A stretch of DNA of 23,788 bases. It comes from Shigella phage fPSFA. A program made the position numbers and the translations under genes. The stretch lies in the sequence record OR670332; one strand, written 5' to 3'. Of this stretch, positions 7,359 to 14,462 are shown one piece after another. The notes under the pieces were generated by a model. It was not told the DNA's origin, did not search any database, and was given only the letters and a program-made list of their open reading frames with translations. Position 1 is the first letter of the stretch; each line of letters starts with the position of its first letter.

Positions 7359-9668
7359 TCAATATCCTGGTTGGCCGCGTGTAGCGCGACGTGACTTAGA
7401 AATGGCGCTGTTACTATCCTGCAACGCTGAACTTACGGTTTCACTGATTATAATACGTAAACGACCTTCGTCGTCACGTTCCGTTGTTGCCGAATCAATT
7501 CTTCCAGTGGTGTTGTTCACAATAGTAACATTATCTCCGCCGGATTTAGCGCCACTCTCCCCCATAATCTGTCGCATCTGCTCCGCCGTTCGGACACGGG
7601 AGGCGCTGGCGGGCATAATCACTTCTGGTTTACCGCGTTCGGCAATAGTAGACATCTGGCCTGCGGCCAGGTTGCCGCCCTGCTCGCGCGCCGACCGTAT
7701 TTTACCTACGTTGGCAAGACCAGCAGCTACCGCCGCCGCCGCGGCAACAGGGGCCAGATATGGGCCGACTACCGGTATGGCTGCTGTTGATTTATACGCT
7801 TCTACGGCTGACGTGTACGTGGCGATTGTCGCCTGTGCGATTGCAAATGCCTTGTACGCGGTGGACGCTTCCCCCAGTGCTGACCCGATGTTGCTTGCCA
7901 TATTGCCGAAAGCTGCACCGGTTGCCTTCGCCCGGTCAAGGGAGTAGGACTCATCCATAGCGCTTAACGTTTGCTGGTATGTTTCTTCGGCAATTAAACC
8001 CTGAGCATGGAAATCATTAAGTTTTTGCAGCTTAACCTCATACTGGCGGTCTAACTCCGCAAATTCTCCTTCAGCAAGGGCCTGCATCTGAGCGACATAC
8101 GCATCCGCGGAGAACTGTTTTTTCATCCTCTCTTCGGTCTGCTGCTCTAAAATCTCGTTCCTCTTGGCGTCGGCGTCTACCGCTATCTGTGTCTTGGCTG
8201 CTTCGAACTGTTCTTGGGAGATAGCCCCCTGTTGCTGGAACTCCTGCAATTTGGCTAATTTCTGTTGTTCCTGTGCATCTATAGCCGCGAGTTCATCGGA
8301 ATTCTGTCTGGCTATAGTATTCAAGAAGTCATCCGCGGCTTTTTTCTGCCTTTGTGCCTGGGTTTCTTCTCTTTTTATCTGCGCCGCTTCTCTTTTCTCG
8401 GCAGCGGCATTTACTCGTTCTGTTTTTGCTTTTTCGGTTGCGTCTATACGTGCAATATCTTGCTGGGCCTCCGTGTCGCGGGCCGCGTTATAGGCTGCTA
8501 TCTGCTCCTTTGTAACGCCTTCACGTTTCGCGAATGCTTCCTTGTCGGCTTGGGCTTGCGCCTTAACGCGCTCCCGGTCGCTGAGAATCGCTATCTGTTG
8601 GTTTTTGACAATAGCGTCATTCTGCTCTCGTAAACGTTGCGTAGTTGCGTTGACATTACTACCTAAATTCTTCTGTGCTTCCGCCGCGGCCCGAGTGGAC
8701 TTCTCCGCATTTTCCAATGCAGTGGCATTATCATTGGCGCTTTTTGTAAGTCGAACCAATTCGGGATTAAGGTTTTTAGACGTCCCCAACCATTCAGTAA
8801 ACACGTCCGATATGCGGCGAGCATTTTCGGCGGTTGGTTCTTTGTTAAAGGCGCTTTGCGCCGCTATCATTTCTAATGCTTGCTCACGGTTAACACCGAA
8901 TTTATCGCTAAGTTCCCCTATGTTTTGCGCCAGCATATTGACGCCAACGATATTCCCCTCGTAGGTGCCGCCGAGTTTTTCGAGAGTATCGCCTACGTCT
9001 GCTCCTTTAGCCACTAGTGCATCGTATTGACTGATAGCCGCGGATGTCGAAGCTTTCCATGTTTCCCAAGATTTAGCGTCTTCTTGGATAGCTTTGGCCG
9101 TTTGCTGTGCAATTATATCAGCGTTAGCCTTAGCCAGCGCTAACTGTGTTTCAGCGGCTTCACGGCTTATTTGCGTCAGTTGGATAAGGCCATCGGTGAG
9201 TTCAAATGTGCCGGACGAAGTTTGCTGAAAGGTACTCTTTAGTTGTTCCTGAGCAGCTTCCAGGTCTTTAGTACTGGCTTCTGCGGATGTTAGTGATTTG
9301 TACAGAACCCCACCAACGGCAGAAGCTAATGCAATTATCGCACCGAGTACCGCACCGCCCGGCCCAAACGCCCCGGCCAACTGTGAACCCTGCTGCCCTA
9401 TCGCGACGAACGCCGATGTGCCGGATTGCAACTGGACAACCATATCCTGCACCTGAAAGCCAACTTGCCCAGCCGCGTTACGGAATTTTGACAAGCCGTC
9501 GCCAGCGGCTTTTGACGTCGCTGAGTTAGTTTTATCCACTGCTGGGGTTAACTTCTGTACTGCGCCCTCGGCGGTGTTGGCCGATGTGGATAATTTGTCG
9601 AGTTCCTGCGCGGCCTGACGGGCACCTTCGGTCTTAACTCGTGCAATGAGTGATGCGGTATCAGCCAT
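7359..9668 (-). CDS. tail tape measure protein
   Basis: About 770 aa, dominated by Ala/Gln/Glu-rich coiled-coil sequence, with a Gly/Ala-rich hydrophobic segment near the C-terminus (AIPVVGPYLAPVAAAAAVAAGLANVG). Follows overlapping chaperone ORFs. Start taken as ATG at 9668 (GAGGG upstream); the ORF track begins at TTG 9683. Confidence 0.85.
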   Translation of the reverse strand: MADTASLIARVKTEGARQAAQELDKLSTSANTAEGAVQKLTPAVDKTNSATSKAAGDGLSKFRNAAGQVGFQVQDMVVQLQSGTSAFVAIGQQGSQLAGAFGPGGAVLGAIIALASAVGGVLYKSLTSAEASTKDLEAAQEQLKSTFQQTSSGTFELTDGLIQLTQISREAAETQLALAKANADIIAQQTAKAIQEDAKSWETWKASTSAAISQYDALVAKGADVGDTLEKLGGTYEGNIVGVNMLAQNIGELSDKFGVNREQALEMIAAQSAFNKEPTAENARRISDVFTEWLGTSKNLNPELVRLTKSANDNATALENAEKSTRAAAEAQKNLGSNVNATTQRLREQNDAIVKNQQIAILSDRERVKAQAQADKEAFAKREGVTKEQIAAYNAARDTEAQQDIARIDATEKAKTERVNAAAEKREAAQIKREETQAQRQKKAADDFLNTIARQNSDELAAIDAQEQQKLAKLQEFQQQGAISQEQFEAAKTQIAVDADAKRNEILEQQTEERMKKQFSADAYVAQMQALAEGEFAELDRQYEVKLQKLNDFHAQGLIAEETYQQTLSAMDESYSLDRAKATGAAFGNMASNIGSALGEASTAYKAFAIAQATIATYTSAVEAYKSTAAIPVVGPYLAPVAAAAAVAAGLANVGKIRSAREQGGNLAAGQMSTIAERGKPEVIMPASASRVRTAEQMRQIMGESGAKSGGDNVTIVNNTTGRIDSATTERDDEGRLRIIISETVSSALQDSNSAISKSRRATRGQPGY

Positions 9669-10203
9669 TATCTCGGCCCTCAAAAATAGCGTCTATTCCC
9701 ATGATAAGCTCAGCTTCCAGCATACTTATCTCTTCCCCCGTTGCCGATTTGAACGCTTCGAGGTCATGCCAGTTTAGCATTTCCCGTGCTATAAGCGTTA
9801 TCTCGGATGTTGTTTCGCGCTGTATGAACTTCAATTTTCGGTACTTATCCATTAATTCATGGAAAATAAAAGGCGGATGCTTGTCTTCCGCCTTAGCAGT
9901 TTTAGTGGCTGCTATTTTCCCCATCGCGATAAGGGCCGCCTCATGCCCGGCGGCTATGTTGTCGAATTTTTGTTTAGCGTCTCGTTCGACGAACAACCAA
10001 CGGGCATAGTCATACAGCGCCTCTACTTTTCCAACAATAATTCCTTGCTCTTGGTGTGATGCGCCAAAATTAACTCGCTTAACCCCCGGTACTGTAGCAG
10101 GAGATTTTCCAGGGACTCTAGTGTGAACGGTTCGTCGAAGGACCAACCGGTTACTATCTCTTTCGCCATCTGATGGTTTAGTTTTTCGACGGCCCACGTA
10201 TAT
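9661..10203 (-). CDS. tail assembly chaperone, -1 frame extension (gpT-like part of a putative G-T fusion)
   Basis: ORF in the -1 frame relative to the upstream chaperone. It overlaps that gene's 3' end for about 180 nt and ends 8 nt inside the tape measure gene. This is the G/GT architecture conserved upstream of tape measure genes. Confidence 0.45.
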   Translation of the reverse strand: MYVGRRKTKPSDGERDSNRLVLRRTVHTRVPGKSPATVPGVKRVNFGASHQEQGIIVGKVEALYDYARWLFVERDAKQKFDNIAAGHEAALIAMGKIAATKTAKAEDKHPPFIFHELMDKYRKLKFIQRETTSEITLIAREMLNWHDLEAFKSATGEEISMLEAELIMGIDAIFEGRDNG

Positions 10204-10439
10204 TCATTGTTATACAGGGTCCAGTCCCCTTTTTCCTTGCATTGGCCATCCAATTCGGACAGCGAGTCTTTCAGGGCGTATACCGCTCGCGTATAAGCCC
10301 GTCCTGCTCTAATCGCGGCATCGCAATCAGGTCCAACTACTTGAAGCCACTCACCGGAGTCTTTGCCGTTGGGCAGGGGAATGGGCATCCTGGTCCCTTC
10401 CTGGTGCTTTTCTACAAAATAAAAATCGCTAAGTTTCAT
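10023..10439 (-). CDS. tail assembly chaperone (gpG-like)
   Basis: 138-aa ORF directly upstream of the tape measure gene, with AAGGA 7 nt upstream of the ATG, and overlapped by the -1 frame ORF. Confidence 0.6.
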   Translation of the reverse strand: MKLSDFYFVEKHQEGTRMPIPLPNGKDSGEWLQVVGPDCDAAIRAGRAYTRAVYALKDSLSELDGQCKEKGDWTLYNNEYTWAVEKLNHQMAKEIVTGWSFDEPFTLESLENLLLQYRGLSELILAHHTKSKELLLEK

Positions 10440-10546
10440 AATAATATCCTTTGGTTAGTCGGTTACAGGTTGGATAGTTGCGTCAGGCGGGAACCACCCG
10501 CTTTTCCGGTGCGACCGTAGACGCTAAATAAGAATAGCAAAATAGC

Positions 10547-10575
10547 TTGCGCAACCGTTAATAGTGTCCTATTAT
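10547..10575 (+). promoter_or_regulatory. putative sigma70-type promoter for the plus-strand accessory module
   Basis: TTGCGC (10547-10552), 17-nt spacer, TATTAT (10570-10575), about 40 nt upstream of the AAGAGG RBS of the 10617 gene. Located in a divergent intergenic region. Confidence 0.4.
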
Positions 10576-10616
10576 CCTACACATCAACAATACATTGTTT
10601 AGTTAAAGAGGTTGCT

Positions 10617-10946
10617 ATGAAGACATTAATCGCTCTAGGTTTGCTAACTGTTTCTTTACAGTCATTCGCCCATCCTTGTGAAACTATTTTTAGCGAAACG
10701 GTCCTTAATACGTCAGGTGCCCTTGACGGTCACGACCAAAAGTTAGTACACGCGTTCCGAACTTCTGCGATAGATGAATGTATAGCCGCCGAAAAAATAG
10801 GTAAATCCGGTCTCCCGGCGCAGGTTGTCACTTATTCGGTTATTAGTTCAGTCGAAACTGGTGGAAATGCATTCTATAGTCTGTTAACCGCAACAAGGCT
10901 TCAAATGGCGTTGGCTGGGTGGGCCATGGGGTCGGAGAGTAAATGA
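10617..10946 (+). CDS. small secreted/periplasmic protein (signal peptide), function unknown
   Basis: N-terminus MKTLIALGLLTVSLQSFA-HP looks like a Sec signal peptide with an A-x-A-like cleavage site. AAGAGG RBS upstream. Confidence 0.6.
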   Translation: MKTLIALGLLTVSLQSFAHPCETIFSETVLNTSGALDGHDQKLVHAFRTSAIDECIAAEKIGKSGLPAQVVTYSVISSVETGGNAFYSLLTATRLQMALAGWAMGSESK

Positions 10947-11008
10947 TCTGGCTAAATTAAACTTACATTATTAGAATCAGATTTGTCTTAAACAATCAGG
11001 AAATAAGC

Positions 11009-12148
11009 ATGGTCACTCGCAAAATAACAGATGAACAGTTGCAGCAAGAGCTAAATGCGGGCCTCGGCCCCACAGAAATAGCTAAAAAGTACAATATGTC
11101 ACGCCGTAATGTTCAGCTTCGTTCTGCGCGCCTGGCGAAGAAAGGCGTCGGACACGGGCGCGACGTAAGCCACCTTGTGCCAGATGGGTATAAAATTAAA
11201 GGTACGTCGTCGCTGGTAGATGAATTCGGTAACACGAAACTTCAATGGGTGAAAACAGATACTGATGCTGAACGTCAGGTAGAATTAATGCGCGCGGTCA
11301 TCGACGGAATGAAGTCTGATATTACGCCGGTTTCTGCGGTCCCTCCTCCTAAAAAGCGGCTAAACGAAAAGTTGCTAAATCTTTACACTGTTTCTGACTT
11401 CCATTTAGGTATGCTGGCCTGGGCGGATGAGAGCGGTGATGACTGGGACATGAAGATTGCGGAAGACCTTTTCTCTAAATGGTTTGACGCCGCGTTTCAG
11501 AAAGCACCCGACGCTGGTGTTGGTGTTATTAATCTCTTAGGGGACTTTGCCCACTTCGATAGCCTTGACGCCGTTACACCCGAGTCACGCCATGTGTTGG
11601 ACGCGGATACGCGTTACCAGAAGTTGGTACGCTACATGATTCGTATGGTCCGCCGTGTTGTGGATATGGCGCTGGTTAAGCATCACACAGTCAAACTTTT
11701 AATCGTTCAAGGCAACCACGACCCTGTCGGTTCAGTATGGCTGTCCGAAATGTTCTGCGCATTGTATGGCAACGAACCTCGCGTATTTGTGGACACCTCC
11801 CCTGACGTATATAAGATGGTTCAGCATGGGAAAACTACGCTATTCATGCACCACGGACACCGTGCGAGATTCGACGCCATAGAGTCAGTAATGATTTCTA
11901 AATTCCGTAAGGCTTTCGGTGAAAGCACATACAGTTACGCCCATGTAGGTCATCTACATCATCAGAAACTAGTAGAGAGCCGTAATATGGTAGTCGAACA
12001 GCATCGCACCCTGGCGGCAAAAGATGCTTACGCATCGCGAGGGGGTTGGATGTCGGGCCGTAGTGCTAACGTGATAACCTATAGTGCCGAATATGGGGAG
12101 GTGGCGCGCCTCACAATATCACCAGAAATGATAGGGGGTATAAATTGA
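11009..12148 (+). CDS. HTH domain fused to calcineurin-like metallophosphoesterase
   Basis: N-terminal HTH-like segment (LGPTEIAKKYNMSRRNVQLRSARL). Phosphoesterase motifs VSDFHLG, LGDFAHFD, VQGNHD, MHHGH, HVGHLHH. AGGAAA RBS upstream. Confidence 0.7.
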   Translation: MVTRKITDEQLQQELNAGLGPTEIAKKYNMSRRNVQLRSARLAKKGVGHGRDVSHLVPDGYKIKGTSSLVDEFGNTKLQWVKTDTDAERQVELMRAVIDGMKSDITPVSAVPPPKKRLNEKLLNLYTVSDFHLGMLAWADESGDDWDMKIAEDLFSKWFDAAFQKAPDAGVGVINLLGDFAHFDSLDAVTPESRHVLDADTRYQKLVRYMIRMVRRVVDMALVKHHTVKLLIVQGNHDPVGSVWLSEMFCALYGNEPRVFVDTSPDVYKMVQHGKTTLFMHHGHRARFDAIESVMISKFRKAFGESTYSYAHVGHLHHQKLVESRNMVVEQHRTLAAKDAYASRGGWMSGRSANVITYSAEYGEVARLTISPEMIGGIN

Positions 12149-12618
12149 CATGGAATGATGTTTACGAATACGAAAACGGGAATCTTTACGCTAAGGACAG
12201 CGTAAACCCTAAGTACCAGAAAGGGCGTAAAGTAGGGTACGTTGATCAACGCGGATATGTAAGAACTAAACTAGGGCCAAAAATGACATTCGCCCACAGA
12301 ATTATATGGGAAATGTTTAACGGAGCTATACCGGAAGGCAAGGAGATTGACCATATAAACGGTGTGAAAAGCGATAACCATATAAAGAATCTTCGGCTAT
12401 GCGACCGGCGCATAAACTGCAAAAACGCGGCAAAGCGCAGGGATAACTCGTCTGGTGTTACTGGGGTCAGTAAAACATATAACGGTAAATGGGTAGTTCA
12501 AATTCAATATAACGGAAATAGAATAGCCAAGCGTTTCGACAACAAAGAAGACGCCATAAGATATGCCGAATGTTTTTACAAAGAAAAGAAAGACTTTACT
12601 GAGAGGCACGGAAAATGA
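12145..12618 (+). CDS. HNH homing endonuclease with AP2 DNA-binding domain
   Basis: HNH motif IDHINGVKSDNHIKNLRLCDRRINCKN, followed by an AP2-like segment SSGVTGVSKTYNGKWVVQIQYNGNRIAKRFDNKEDAIRYAE. Apparent TTG start overlapping the previous stop. Confidence 0.8.
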   Translation: MTWNDVYEYENGNLYAKDSVNPKYQKGRKVGYVDQRGYVRTKLGPKMTFAHRIIWEMFNGAIPEGKEIDHINGVKSDNHIKNLRLCDRRINCKNAAKRRDNSSGVTGVSKTYNGKWVVQIQYNGNRIAKRFDNKEDAIRYAECFYKEKKDFTERHGK

Positions 12619-12845
12619 CAAACAAATATAACCGTACAATGACAAACACCGAAGGTGACAGCATTACCTGTGATGTGTATGACGTTCTGAGAGCCTTTGA
12701 TATCCGCGACCCTGCACTACAGCACGCATTGAAGAAGCTGTTGTGTACTGGTTTACGAGGGCATAAAGATGCTGATACTGACCTACGCGAGGCAATGGAG
12801 AGTCTGGATAAATACCGACTATATCTGAGTAATCTTGAAGAATGA
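12615..12845 (+). CDS. small hypothetical protein (76 aa)
   Basis: ATGA overlap with the HNH gene stop; the ORF ends directly at the terminator. Confidence 0.5.
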   Translation: MTNKYNRTMTNTEGDSITCDVYDVLRAFDIRDPALQHALKKLLCTGLRGHKDADTDLREAMESLDKYRLYLSNLEE

Positions 12846-12849
12846 AATT

Positions 12850-12876
12850 AAGGCCCCGAAAGGGGCCTTTTTCTTA
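12850..12876. terminator. bidirectional intrinsic terminator between accessory module and major tail gene
   Basis: AAGGCCCC-GAAA-GGGGCCTT followed by TTTCTT on the plus strand, and a U-rich run on the minus strand as well. The 20-mer core is identical to the one at 1360-1379. Confidence 0.65.
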
Positions 12877-14043
12877 GGCATACTTAATGCGCTGGATAAC
12901 AATCGATGACTGGAACTGGTTCCCGGTTGCCTGTCCCTCAAGAGAAAGGGTGATAGACTCAGGGCCGCCGATTTCCGGAGTTGCAGACGTCAGTGAAGCA
13001 CGTTTTAGTGTAAAGCTCATTGCGCCATCCGGGCCATCAAGGACCGAAGATACCTCCATTTCTGTTTCATCCAGGAATTTATTTAACAGCGTCAGGTCGT
13101 ACAGTTTACCAGCCAGTGAGAAAGTGTTAGCCGCGCGGCCGCGCTCAACAAATGCCACGCTGTTATTTCCCAACTCGAACTGTGCGGATGCGCCGTTGTC
13201 GTTAGTAATGGTGAACGTGTCGATAAGTTTAAGCGGCGCGGCTCCGTCATAAGCAGATACATCAACCGATGCAAACGGACGGGCGCTAAAATTGGTCGTG
13301 AAATCTGAACCACTCGGCGGTGCTTGTAAGATTTCCTGATTCAAGCCGATGAACGGGAATGAACCTGTCACCATAGCGTTAACCGCCTGTTCTATAGTGA
13401 ACCCGGTAAACTCAACGCCACGGGTTACGATATATGAATCCGGGTTTCCGCACTTACCTTTCAACCACGTAAGAATCGAATATGTCTTACACAAGTTACC
13501 GGTTTCCAGTTTATCTGCGATACGCAAATTGGCCTGGACGTCGGATTCGGCGGTAAGGGTATGCTGGATACCCGCACCGGTTACGACTGTAGCGGTTACT
13601 GCGGTAACGAGGAAAGCTTTATCGTTATTACCCGACAAACCATCGAATTGCACCAGGTCGCCTACTTCAACGCCGTCTGTCACAAAGCTACCGGTAGCGC
13701 GTGTAAAAGTTTTCGCTGCTGGGGCTACGGTGATACCAATGCCTGATAGAGTTGACCCGGCCACCCATGAACTAGTCATCGCACCGGCCAACAGCTCGTC
13801 CTGACTGGTCGCGCTCAGTTCAATAGCGTATTCACCTGTTACCTGACGGTTGCCGGTGCGGATGGACGATGTTTCACGGCTGCCGTCGAGCTCGTTGGAA
13901 ATGAGGGCGTCGCGCGTTACGGCCGGAATGCCACCAGTGTTGCGGAGCGGCTGCCATACCGGATTATCGGGCGTCACACCCGGCGTCGTCTCAAGAACGT
14001 AAAATTGCGCGGTCATCGCGCCCTTATATGGTTGTAACGCCAT
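12874..14043 (-). CDS. major tail (tube) protein
   Basis: 389-aa ORF immediately downstream of the head-tail joining and terminator genes and upstream of the tail chaperone/tape measure block. Call is by position. Confidence 0.55.
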   Translation of the reverse strand: MALQPYKGAMTAQFYVLETTPGVTPDNPVWQPLRNTGGIPAVTRDALISNELDGSRETSSIRTGNRQVTGEYAIELSATSQDELLAGAMTSSWVAGSTLSGIGITVAPAAKTFTRATGSFVTDGVEVGDLVQFDGLSGNNDKAFLVTAVTATVVTGAGIQHTLTAESDVQANLRIADKLETGNLCKTYSILTWLKGKCGNPDSYIVTRGVEFTGFTIEQAVNAMVTGSFPFIGLNQEILQAPPSGSDFTTNFSARPFASVDVSAYDGAAPLKLIDTFTITNDNGASAQFELGNNSVAFVERGRAANTFSLAGKLYDLTLLNKFLDETEMEVSSVLDGPDGAMSFTLKRASLTSATPEIGGPESITLSLEGQATGNQFQSSIVIQRIKYA

Positions 14044-14462
14044 TATCTAATCCTCGCTGTAAAGGCTATGAAATTAATTGAGAGAGGCCTCTTCGCCCAT
14101 CCATTCTCAACAATAAGAGGACCGAGGCTTACTGATTGTACCTCAGCACAGATTTCGTTACGACTAAAACAGTTACCGGCGGCGAAGGTGGCGTTTAGCT
14201 TATCAGCTAACCGGTTGAGAGGGGCGCTACCCAAGGTAGACCCAACGTTAATGTCCACCTGATAAATACCTGCCCGTTGTTCGGTCCAGAACAGGTCAGC
14301 TTGTTCCGTATCGGCCAACAACATATAACTCGCCAAATATGGTACATCCGTAGACGTCGGTGCGTCTATGTTCTCTAACGCAACCATGATGTCGTTGTCG
14401 GTGCCAAATGCCGCCAGTGCCGTGTCGAATGCTTTCGTTAAGTCCTCAAAATATGTTGCCAT
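14043..14462 (-). CDS. tail terminator / tail completion protein
   Basis: 139-aa ORF directly upstream of the major tail gene, with a TAATG-type overlap. Call is by position. Confidence 0.45.
   Translation of the reverse strand: MATYFEDLTKAFDTALAAFGTDNDIMVALENIDAPTSTDVPYLASYMLLADTEQADLFWTEQRAGIYQVDINVGSTLGSAPLNRLADKLNATFAAGNCFSRNEICAEVQSVSLGPLIVENGWAKRPLSINFIAFTARIR

Follow-up and report, generated by a model that had tools for sequence, protein, structure and literature searches.

Opposite-strand cargo and an int-alpA-like RNA leader at the joint between the tail tube and tail chaperone genes of Shigella phage fPSFA

In the 23,788-nucleotide stretch of Shigella phage fPSFA analyzed here (record OR670332; hereafter, the window), four plus-strand genes are embedded in a cluster of minus-strand tail genes, between those encoding the tail tube (12874-14043; Phage_tube_2, E 1.8e-37) and the tail assembly chaperone (10023-10439, ATG at 10439). 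The region they occupy, 10440-12876, is probably an old regulatory joint of the tail genes in which an opposite-strand cassette was assembled, a homing endonuclease gene being a late addition, and a structured RNA leading the chaperone messenger. The joint would consist of a terminator placed after the gene of the abundant tube protein, followed by a promoter with a structured leader, serving the low-abundance chaperone, the tape measure, and the distal tail genes. In Guernseyvirinae, the cassette would have been built between this terminator and the chaperone promoter, and its content would turn over by recombination at conserved boundaries.

Starting from the chaperone side, the four genes encode a predicted secreted, helical protein of 109 aa (sec109; 10617-10946, phrog_14165), a 379-aa protein combining a winged helix-turn-helix (wHTH) with a calcineurin-like metallophosphoesterase (11009-12148; phrog_704, E 5e-165), a free-standing, I-HmuI-like HNH endonuclease of 157 aa (12145-12618), and a 76-aa protein (p76; 12615-12845). 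An earlier note on this DNA, made from its letters, had described four plus-strand open reading frames (ORFs) between the minus-strand tail tube and chaperone genes, and all were found at exactly the positions it gave. The window belongs to a Jerseyvirus: the 4.5 kb around the module are 99.0% identical to Salmonella phage S4lw (Guernseyvirinae, Jerseyvirus), and 392 phage records match the region at megablast level, chiefly Salmonella Jerseyviruses and Escherichia Kagunaviruses. No paper on this module, or on the phosphoesterase family in these phages, was found in the literature.

The variability of this position was surveyed in 55 loci, taken from 49 viral contigs encoding relatives of the tail tube protein and from annotated phage records; in each locus, the tube and chaperone genes were located, and everything between them was catalogued. 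The gap ranges from 99-181 bp up to 3855 bp. In the nine loci where it measures 99-181 bp, it contains no gene, and the tube gene is directly followed by the chaperone gene. Gaps of 460-830 bp hold a single opposite-strand gene, usually a sec109 relative, those of 1-1.6 kb hold several small genes, and those of 1.8-2.4 kb contain the phosphoesterase. The cargo, from one to about seven genes of changing identity, is oriented opposite to the tail genes in every locus that bears it. Its members include sec109, Imm (PF14373), a lipoprotein, the metallophosphoesterase, p76, two HNH lineages, Rha/ANT, a DNA methylase, and a HAD-PNKP with a kinase. Judged from this catalogue, the gap between the tube and chaperone genes is a genuine accessory cargo hotspot.

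Part of the cargo is, nevertheless, fixed. In Jerseyvirus gaps, the phosphoesterase and p76 are constant and the remaining slots variable, and both genes occupy this position in essentially every Jerseyvirus or Kagunavirus locus examined. The junction between the two is empty or filled by one of the two HNH lineages, a membrane protein, or a split DNA methylase, and Kagunavirus K1H carries a HAD-type PNKP phosphatase and a P-loop kinase at this point. In many phages, a Rha/KilAC antirepressor-like gene has been added 3' of p76. Because of this near-constant position, and because the phosphoesterase family is found in 2008 phage records, the phosphoesterase and p76 are, on comparative grounds, a genus-level core and not recent cargo. 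The cargo island described in the earlier note thus holds for the site, which carries from zero to about seven genes among the 55 loci, and does not hold for two of its four genes, which are fixed genus-wide. The synteny comparison that the note had proposed gave a divided answer: constant presence at the same position, which together with essential phenotypes would have made the module core rather than accessory, was seen for the phosphoesterase and p76 only, in Jerseyvirus and Kagunavirus, and the other slots vary. In locus L044 (IMGVR_UViG_2597490042_000001), the methylase at the phosphoesterase-p76 junction is of the N6/N4 type (PF01555, E 1.5e-23) and apparently split into ORFs of 94 and 142 aa.

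The constancy of the two genes is also an argument for a different explanation, according to which the module is a core DNA/RNA-metabolism operon, made of the phosphoesterase and its partners, that merely happens to be sited in the tail cluster of this subfamily. The invariant catalytic residues of a phosphoesterase present in so many records, and its proximity elsewhere to pseT, DNA ligase, or SSB-like genes, would agree with this. However, relatives whose tube proteins are 70-81% identical have either no cargo or cargo without the phosphoesterase, slots one, three, and five vary inside one genus, the phosphoesterase is truncated in L011, and alleles about 60% identical have been swapped among otherwise close phages, which makes a core operon unlikely.

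The joint on which the favored explanation relies is recognizable at both ends of the gap. On the tube side, a hairpin at 12850-12869 (AAGGCCCC-GAAA-GGGGCCTT) scores as terminator-like on both strands, in agreement with the bidirectional terminator proposed in the earlier note; its T-run is good on the plus strand and weaker on the minus strand (TTAATTTC). This hairpin is located directly 3' of the tube stop codon in nearly all relatives, cargo-free ones included, and stem flips among relatives preserve its pairing. As an intrinsic terminator, it would end the transcripts of both the cargo and the tail tube gene.

On the chaperone side, alignment shows that the 177-bp divergent region is near-invariant across Jerseyviruses and K1H, whichever first gene follows. 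A sigma-70-type promoter is predicted on its plus strand at 10547-10575 (-35 TTGCGC at 10547-10552, 17-nt spacer, -10 TATTAT at 10570-10575), and would drive a single rightward transcript that reaches the terminator at 12850-12869 and yields four products. On the minus strand, an extended -10 element (10539->10531, TGCTATTCT) is the predicted promoter of the operon formed by the chaperone, tape measure, and distal tail genes. Diverse relatives conserve the motif TGnTA(T/G)(T/A)(C/A)T about 99-100 nt before the chaperone start; the counterparts of the window sequence are TGCTAGAAT, TGGTAGAAT, and GATAGAAT, and TGCTATCAT in cargo-free relatives. Transcription of the tail genes would restart leftward from this element, with an mRNA that opens with an int-alpA-like three-way junction. 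It had been argued in the earlier note that the downstream tail genes need a promoter of their own; the conserved extended -10, also present in cargo-free relatives, fits this requirement and makes a separate promoter for the distal tail genes a reasonable inference. Since both the terminator and the promoter are conserved in relatives devoid of cargo, the joint that they form would be older than the cargo itself.

The HNH endonuclease gene, by alignment with relatives, is a late insertion into an existing cassette and did not bring the module in. It lies within a 479-bp insertion (about 12135-12613) relative to HNH-less phages such as pink and AG11, and most relatives match the region in two pieces that span 4022 bp, versus 4501 bp. 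Where the insertion is missing, in pink and AG11, the stop codon of the phosphoesterase and the start codon of p76 overlap (ATGA). The window has 479 bp between these two genes, with overlaps at either end: the TTG start of the HNH gene overlaps the phosphoesterase stop (TTGA), and its stop overlaps the p76 start (ATGA). A search at 90% identity or more recovered the window-type gene in seven phage records (94-99% identity). S4lw and CTH7 have an HNH gene at the same phosphoesterase-p76 junction, where the second HNH lineage is also found; in CTH7, the surrounding cassette has Imm, another allele of p76, and a supplementary Rha/Ant gene.

The sequences flanking the insertion are asymmetric. 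In a sliding comparison, identity over the last third of the phosphoesterase gene (about 11640-12140, plus strand) is 85-100% with HNH-bearing phages (S4lw, CTH7) and 61-82% with HNH-less ones. In p76 and upstream of 11640, by contrast, the nearest relatives of the window are HNH-less phages, to which p76 is 97-100% identical. Over codons 211-376, the differences amount to 119 nt and 22 aa relative to pink, versus 46 nt and 4 aa relative to CTH7. This co-conversion-like tract would fit homing with one-sided co-conversion, or a single recombination that carried the gene and its flank together. The HNH gene may be viewed as a selfish late arrival, translationally coupled to both neighbors, that would spread by cleaving alleles devoid of it, with co-conversion of about 0.5 kb of the phosphoesterase gene.

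The protein itself matches HNH_3 (PF13392) at 70.4 bits, for a cut-off of 24.8, and I-HmuI of phage SPO1 (1U3E; E 3.4e-5). As the latter alignment begins at its first residue, the TTG start is supported. It had been labeled an 'HNH-AP2' endonuclease; these matches bear out the HNH part, and no Pfam match to AP2 was obtained at E<=1. Residues 108-150 are covered only by phrog_11531, and the protein has a weak similarity to DUF2188 (18.1 bits for a cut-off of 22). Free-standing phage homing endonucleases include T4 mobE and segG. Like these and I-HmuI, the window gene has the HNH_3 motif and an I-HmuI-like N-terminus, an intergenic location between conserved genes, a sporadic distribution, and a divergent flank found on one side and in carriers only. 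Unlike I-HmuI, which is intron-encoded and has a C-terminal HTH, it is free-standing, with a different C-terminal region that appears AP2-like by eye but not by Pfam.

These data bear directly on the suggestion, made in the earlier note, that the four genes are one cargo island, possibly imported through the HNH endonuclease, that could carry host-takeover or anti-defense functions. The position is a hotspot of changing content, the cassettes of sister phages include Imm, a DNA methylase, or a polynucleotide kinase/phosphatase, and HNH genes of two lineages recur at the phosphoesterase/p76 junction. Nevertheless, a three-gene, HNH-less cassette is the common state in most relatives, into which the HNH gene is a clean insertion between pre-existing genes; the nearest relatives differ on the two sides of it, and the majority of cargo-bearing loci contain no HNH gene at all. 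The acquisition step is, thus, largely refuted. The proposed roles are demonstrated for no gene of the window, and none of the four proteins matched a known anti-defense family in Pfam, PHROG, and PDB sequence searches. Hints of takeover or anti-defense come only from the genes that sister phages have in the same slots (Imm, DNA methylase, polynucleotide kinase/phosphatase, and Rha/Ant), and Kagunavirus relatives are reported to be highly sensitive to restriction-modification systems (PMC11990801). Taken as a whole, an HNH-imported island is very improbable.

A parallel to the cassette, as understood here, is offered by morons. Morons and other accessory hotspots occur in the tail clusters of lambdoid and T1/T5-like siphoviruses, and include envelope-acting exclusion genes, such as cor of T1/phi80 and llp of T5. 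Like them, the window unit appears self-contained, with its own predicted promoter and terminator, a variable presence, a location between conserved structural genes, and a putative small envelope protein of the kind that morons often encode; the assignment is made from sequence and comparison only. Unlike them, it lies on the strand opposite to its neighbors, has a bidirectional terminator in common with the tail tube gene, is divided into multiple slots, and includes two genes fixed throughout the genus.

The part of the region most worth following up is the leader of the predicted chaperone mRNA. Its 5' end, directly downstream of the minus-strand extended -10, forms a 45-nt, int-alpA-like three-way junction (10524->10480, minus strand). 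Helix P1 (10524-10520/10484-10480, GCGUC/GACGC, then 'UA') encloses a P2 hairpin of 3 bp (10517-10515/10509-10507, CGG-UCGCA-CCG), a GAAAA junction (10506-10502), and a P3 hairpin of 5 bp (10501-10497/10491-10487, GCGGG-UGGUU-CCCGC, then 'CU'), whose UGGUU loop is at 10496-10492. In an alignment of 24 distinct leaders, 95.6% of the cells are paired, and compensatory changes are seen in 12 of the 17 pairs. Covariation scores 0.376, versus 0.11 in shuffled alignments (reached in 0/500) and at most 0.10 with slid partners, and covariation is present in all three helices. RNAalifold independently predicts the same junction.

The motif of reference, int-alpA, was reportedly found by comparative genomics by Weinberg et al. 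in 2017. Rfam lists it as a small RNA (sRNA; RF02996), and no functional study of it was found in the literature. The leader matches RF02996 with the same joints at 26.7 bits (E 7e-4), below the gathering score of 35.8, and no int-alpA was found at the gathering threshold in 13 related Guernseyvirinae-type loci. The junction features of the motif, namely the CUA/GAAAA/CU joints and the GC-rich third helix, are all present. A covariance model (R1) built from the leaders detects a single copy in the window (103.6 bits), and it also detects, at 30-40 bits, viral-contig elements that pass the Rfam threshold at 36-54 bits. As a model of the leaders recognizes accepted members of the family, the leader can be considered a divergent variant of int-alpA. 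Compared with the Rfam motif, it retains the three-way junction, the joints, the GCGG..CCGC third helix, and a loop complementary to downstream sites; it differs by having 3 rather than 4 pairs in P2, a P3 loop of 5 rather than about 9 nt, three AACC target sites, and a fixed position before the tail assembly chaperone gene.

Elements of the family share a characteristic placement. Candidates were sought in viral contigs with a loose DNA pattern, which gave mostly chance matches, and these were filtered with the covariance model. The elements often begin 8-20 nt past the stop codon of the preceding gene, and a TANNNT hexamer occurs 3-12 nt upstream in 20/36 members, versus a 10% background. 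In four cargo-free relatives, the variant comes directly after the tube stop codon. A bona fide int-alpA (50.6 bits) was also found between the major tail protein (phrog_158) and chaperone (phrog_313) genes of an unrelated, GC-rich phage contig.

Other bona fide copies directly follow Mu-F-like head, Rz lysis, or terminase genes (contigs L084, L116, L130, L072, L094, L127, and L108), the preceding genes having been confirmed by Pfam for L084, L072, and L127. In these contigs, int-alpA precedes small uncharacterized ORFs or, in L108, an HNH endonuclease gene, and the elements have the look of a general-purpose leader placed before inserted gene cassettes. The prophage-like contig L094 also contains a match to the STnc100 sRNA (11225-11409, plus strand; 66.7 bits, above threshold), about 1.3 kb upstream of its int-alpA.

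What the leader might do is suggested by its third loop. Three AACC sites complementary to the P3 loop are found downstream on the same strand (10471-10468, 10464-10461, and 10456-10453), the last of which abuts the Shine-Dalgarno sequence of the chaperone gene (AAGGA, 10451-10447). In two relatives, the loop is UGGUC and the first site GACC, a U-A pair being replaced by C-G. Among 36 members of the family with distinct loops, complementarity with their own downstream sequence averages 5.92 nt, versus 3.79 nt with mismatched partners (0/2000 permutations); 31/36 have at least two complementary sites, and in 30/36 a site is located at or beside the ribosome-binding site. A working hypothesis drawn from these matches is that the tube/chaperone joint contains a translational control element acting in cis, in which the loop would pair with sites beside the chaperone ribosome-binding site and set or switch chaperone translation, possibly by pairing with a decoy and with the ribosome-binding-site copy in turn.

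A broader version of this hypothesis can be put forward tentatively, with rather less than even confidence: int-alpA RNAs would be cis-acting leader switches at the starts of cassettes in many phages, their third loop pairing alternately with a decoy and with the ribosome-binding site, and the Guernseyvirinae variant (10524->10447) would be a dedicated chaperone valve. If true, this valve would set the amounts of chaperone and tape measure relative to the tube, at a joint that doubles as a landing pad for opposite-strand cargo. Small structured RNAs derived from operon leaders, with loops complementary to repeated downstream sites, one of them at a ribosome-binding site, are known in the c4 and CI antisense RNAs of phages P1 and P4. 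The likeness to them is one of analogy only, limited to a structured leader RNA with a loop that matches repeated downstream sites, including the ribosome-binding site. The leader gave no match to the C4 family in Rfam, and no sequence relationship was found. Unlike the P1 and P4 RNAs, it is situated in the tail operon of a virulent phage rather than in an immunity region.

Reading the hairpins at 10480-10524 instead as a plus-strand or DNA terminator/insulator (GCGGG-AACCA-CCCGC-TTTT) shielding the cargo promoter from antisense transcription, as the TTTT after the P3 hairpin on the plus strand, the 7 A-C cells that would become G-U on the other strand, and an unremarkable folding energy might invite, is scarcely credible, given that the element was not picked up as terminator-like, that the whole three-helix junction covaries and not P3 alone, that the loop complements sites adjacent to the ribosome-binding site of the same-strand downstream gene across 36 members with distinct loops, that a -10 hexamer precedes the elements on that strand at the frequency given above, and that cargo-free phages have it directly between two same-strand genes.

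In Jerseyvirus, the first slot of the cargo, adjacent to the chaperone gene, is filled either by sec109 or by a 59-aa Imm_superinfect protein (PF14373, E 3.5e-15), and the two occur together in none of the surveyed loci. The commonest gap occupant is sec109 (24 loci, in some of which it is the sole gene); in the phage collection, sec109 was found in 98 records, and Imm, at 90% identity or more, in 262. Most Jerseyviruses have Imm in this slot, behind the same predicted promoter, and another relative has a lipoprotein. Similarity between sec109- and Imm-type phages stops a few bases past the -10 and resumes in a 62-nt spacer before the phosphoesterase gene (10947-11008, plus strand), so that slot one behaves as a cassette bounded by conserved sequence. 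This spacer, 98-100% identical in most of the sec109- and Imm-type phages compared and 90-96% identical in four others, is where the exchangeable first cassette ends on its right-hand side.

Two further observations concern this control region. The predicted 5' untranslated region of sec109 contains, between the -10 and the ribosome-binding site, a perfect inverted repeat, AACAAT-AC-ATTGTT (10586-10599, plus strand). This repeat, found in sec109-type cassettes and not in Imm-type ones, could be an operator. The chaperone gene exists as two alleles, 93-99% or 46-48% identical to that of the window (L004 and L008-L017 compared with 10023-10439). The divergent allele usually accompanies Imm; L015 combines Imm with a window-type chaperone, which places a recombination boundary within the control region.

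The N-terminus of sec109 is signal-peptide-like (MKTLIALGLLTVSLQSFA/HP), and the family alignment shows conservation of the signal peptide and of two cysteines, in line with the signal-peptide protein announced in the earlier note. An AlphaFold2 (AF2) model, with a predicted local distance difference test (pLDDT) score of 74.6, is a small helical bundle. It has no analogue in the PDB, and only uncharacterized phage proteins resemble it in BFVD. The sequence has no match in Pfam (E<=1), NCBIfam, or the PDB, and large-database searches with sec109 and p76 returned only short, unannotated close relatives. The protein may act at the cell envelope, possibly in superinfection exclusion, for which the slot and promoter in common with Imm, and the lipoprotein in one relative, make it a candidate. 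Like T4 Imm (PF14373), it is small and envelope-targeted, and the Imm relatives hold the identical first slot behind an identical promoter. Unlike T4 Imm, to which it is not homologous, it is predicted to be a periplasmic helical protein with a cleaved signal and likely a disulfide, and not a membrane protein; its sequence falls outside PF14373 at E<=1, and no domain common to sec109 and Imm was found with Pfam.

The wHTH-metallophosphoesterase had been recognized as an HTH-metallophosphoesterase in the earlier note, and this identification was substantiated. Its metal-binding motifs are intact (D130-x-H132, G178-D179, G235-N236-H237, H282, and G314-H315-x-H317), and all five are invariant in 8 diverse homologues of 29-73% identity. 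The N-terminal three-helix unit resembles the wHTH of Lrp/AsnC regulators (E 0.004 in a PDB profile search that returned the HTH only). Pfam scores remain below the gathering cut-offs (21.4 versus 27 for Metallophos_2 and 19.8 versus 21.5 for Metallophos), one close homologue has a precomputed PF12850 match, and PHROG labels the phrog_704 family 'DNA repair exonuclease'. From its motifs, the enzyme is probably catalytically intact, and it would bind DNA through its wHTH. Like Mre11/SbcD-type enzymes, it has the five metal-binding motifs, with weak SbcD matches over motifs I-II; unlike them, it has an extra N-terminal wHTH and sub-cut-off Pfam scores. No Rad50/SbcC-type ATPase partner was found in the cassette or in homologous loci.

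Outside Guernseyvirinae, the phosphoesterase gene has other genomic locations, as seen for Dhillonvirus, Drexlerviridae, PY100, Vibrio, Rhodobacter, and Campylobacter phages. It adjoins lysis or terminase genes in Dhillonvirus, Hanrivervirus, and RcMcDreamy, and neighbors pseT in PY100, a DNA ligase in a Campylobacter myovirus, and an OB-fold protein in a Vibrio phage. Such neighbors (PNKP phosphatase, kinase, ligase) point to nucleic-acid end processing, with nuclease activity, end-healing, or other substrates equally compatible. The enzyme, conserved across T1-like siphoviruses, may thus process nucleic-acid ends or act as a nuclease. In K1H (L005, 3001-5167), it is followed by the HAD-type PNKP phosphatase and a small P-loop kinase-like protein, and in the unrelated Yersinia phage PY100 (L180, 2492-4784), by pseT and a 195-aa ORF, a recurring trio that hints at nucleic-acid end repair. 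The two Jerseyvirus alleles (376-379 aa and 384 aa, about 60% identical) are exchanged among otherwise close genomes (L015, L016, L012, L010, and L044), and the truncated copy of L011 encodes 269 aa.

The last cassette gene, p76, corresponds to the 76-aa protein gene of the earlier note and belongs to phrog_2452 (E 4e-34). Its relatives were detected by tblastn in 773 phage records of many genera, and it has no Pfam, NCBIfam, or PDB match. The possibility that it is a remnant of a Kagunavirus kinase was rejected, as it has no similarity to K1H ORF15.

Several results weigh against the regulatory joint and cassette proposed here. No promoter was picked up in 10440-10616 by a simple consensus scan, and there was no overall enrichment of promoter-like sites, so that promoter use is argued from conservation; of the divergent promoter region that the earlier note had placed there, conserved promoter-like elements on both strands remain, as predictions. 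The folding energy of the leader is not unusual (z = -0.68, single sequence), and its support, therefore, comes from covariation only. G-U wobble pairs had been considered as proof of the minus strand, and this argument was dropped, since 9 G-U versus 7 A-C cells do not settle the strand by themselves. One recombination event, in place of repeated homing, could account for the divergent flank common to HNH carriers. No usable model of the metallophosphoesterase domain was obtained: the AF2 model, based on a shallow alignment, has a mean pLDDT of 48.5, its N-terminal helices (about 80) being the sole confident part, and the enzyme has no close PDB relative. Because sec109 lacks a fold or family match, its role is argued from position alone. 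Finally, the one related transcriptome, that of Kagunavirus K1B4, is coarse, giving only a late peak of the Imm gene, and cannot time the cassette (PMC12645636).

As a module, the cassette is ordinary, another phage accessory hotspot with a homing endonuclease inside, since hundreds of deposited genomes show its architecture, which obeys known principles. Its interest lies elsewhere. The tube-chaperone gap of Jersey-like phages, which are widely used in Salmonella biocontrol, is a well-bounded natural swap site that spares the tail operon and could serve engineering. The alternation, in the first slot, of a known superinfection immunity gene and an uncharacterized secreted family provides a concrete candidate for a new exclusion factor. 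Complementarity between the loop and the ribosome-binding site also gives the orphan Rfam motif int-alpA a testable function.

The minus-strand genes of the window are ordered from head genes to tail genes. The tail terminator gene (14043-14462) precedes that of the tube, and the tape measure gene (7359-9683) lies beyond the chaperone. The chaperone ORF (10023-10439; Phage_TAC_4, phrog_15027, and phrog_313) overlaps, in a different frame, a second ORF on the same strand (9661-10197; Phage_TAC_18), as expected from the programmed frameshift of tail assembly chaperones, and the K1H record annotates this pair as a joined, frameshifted coding sequence.

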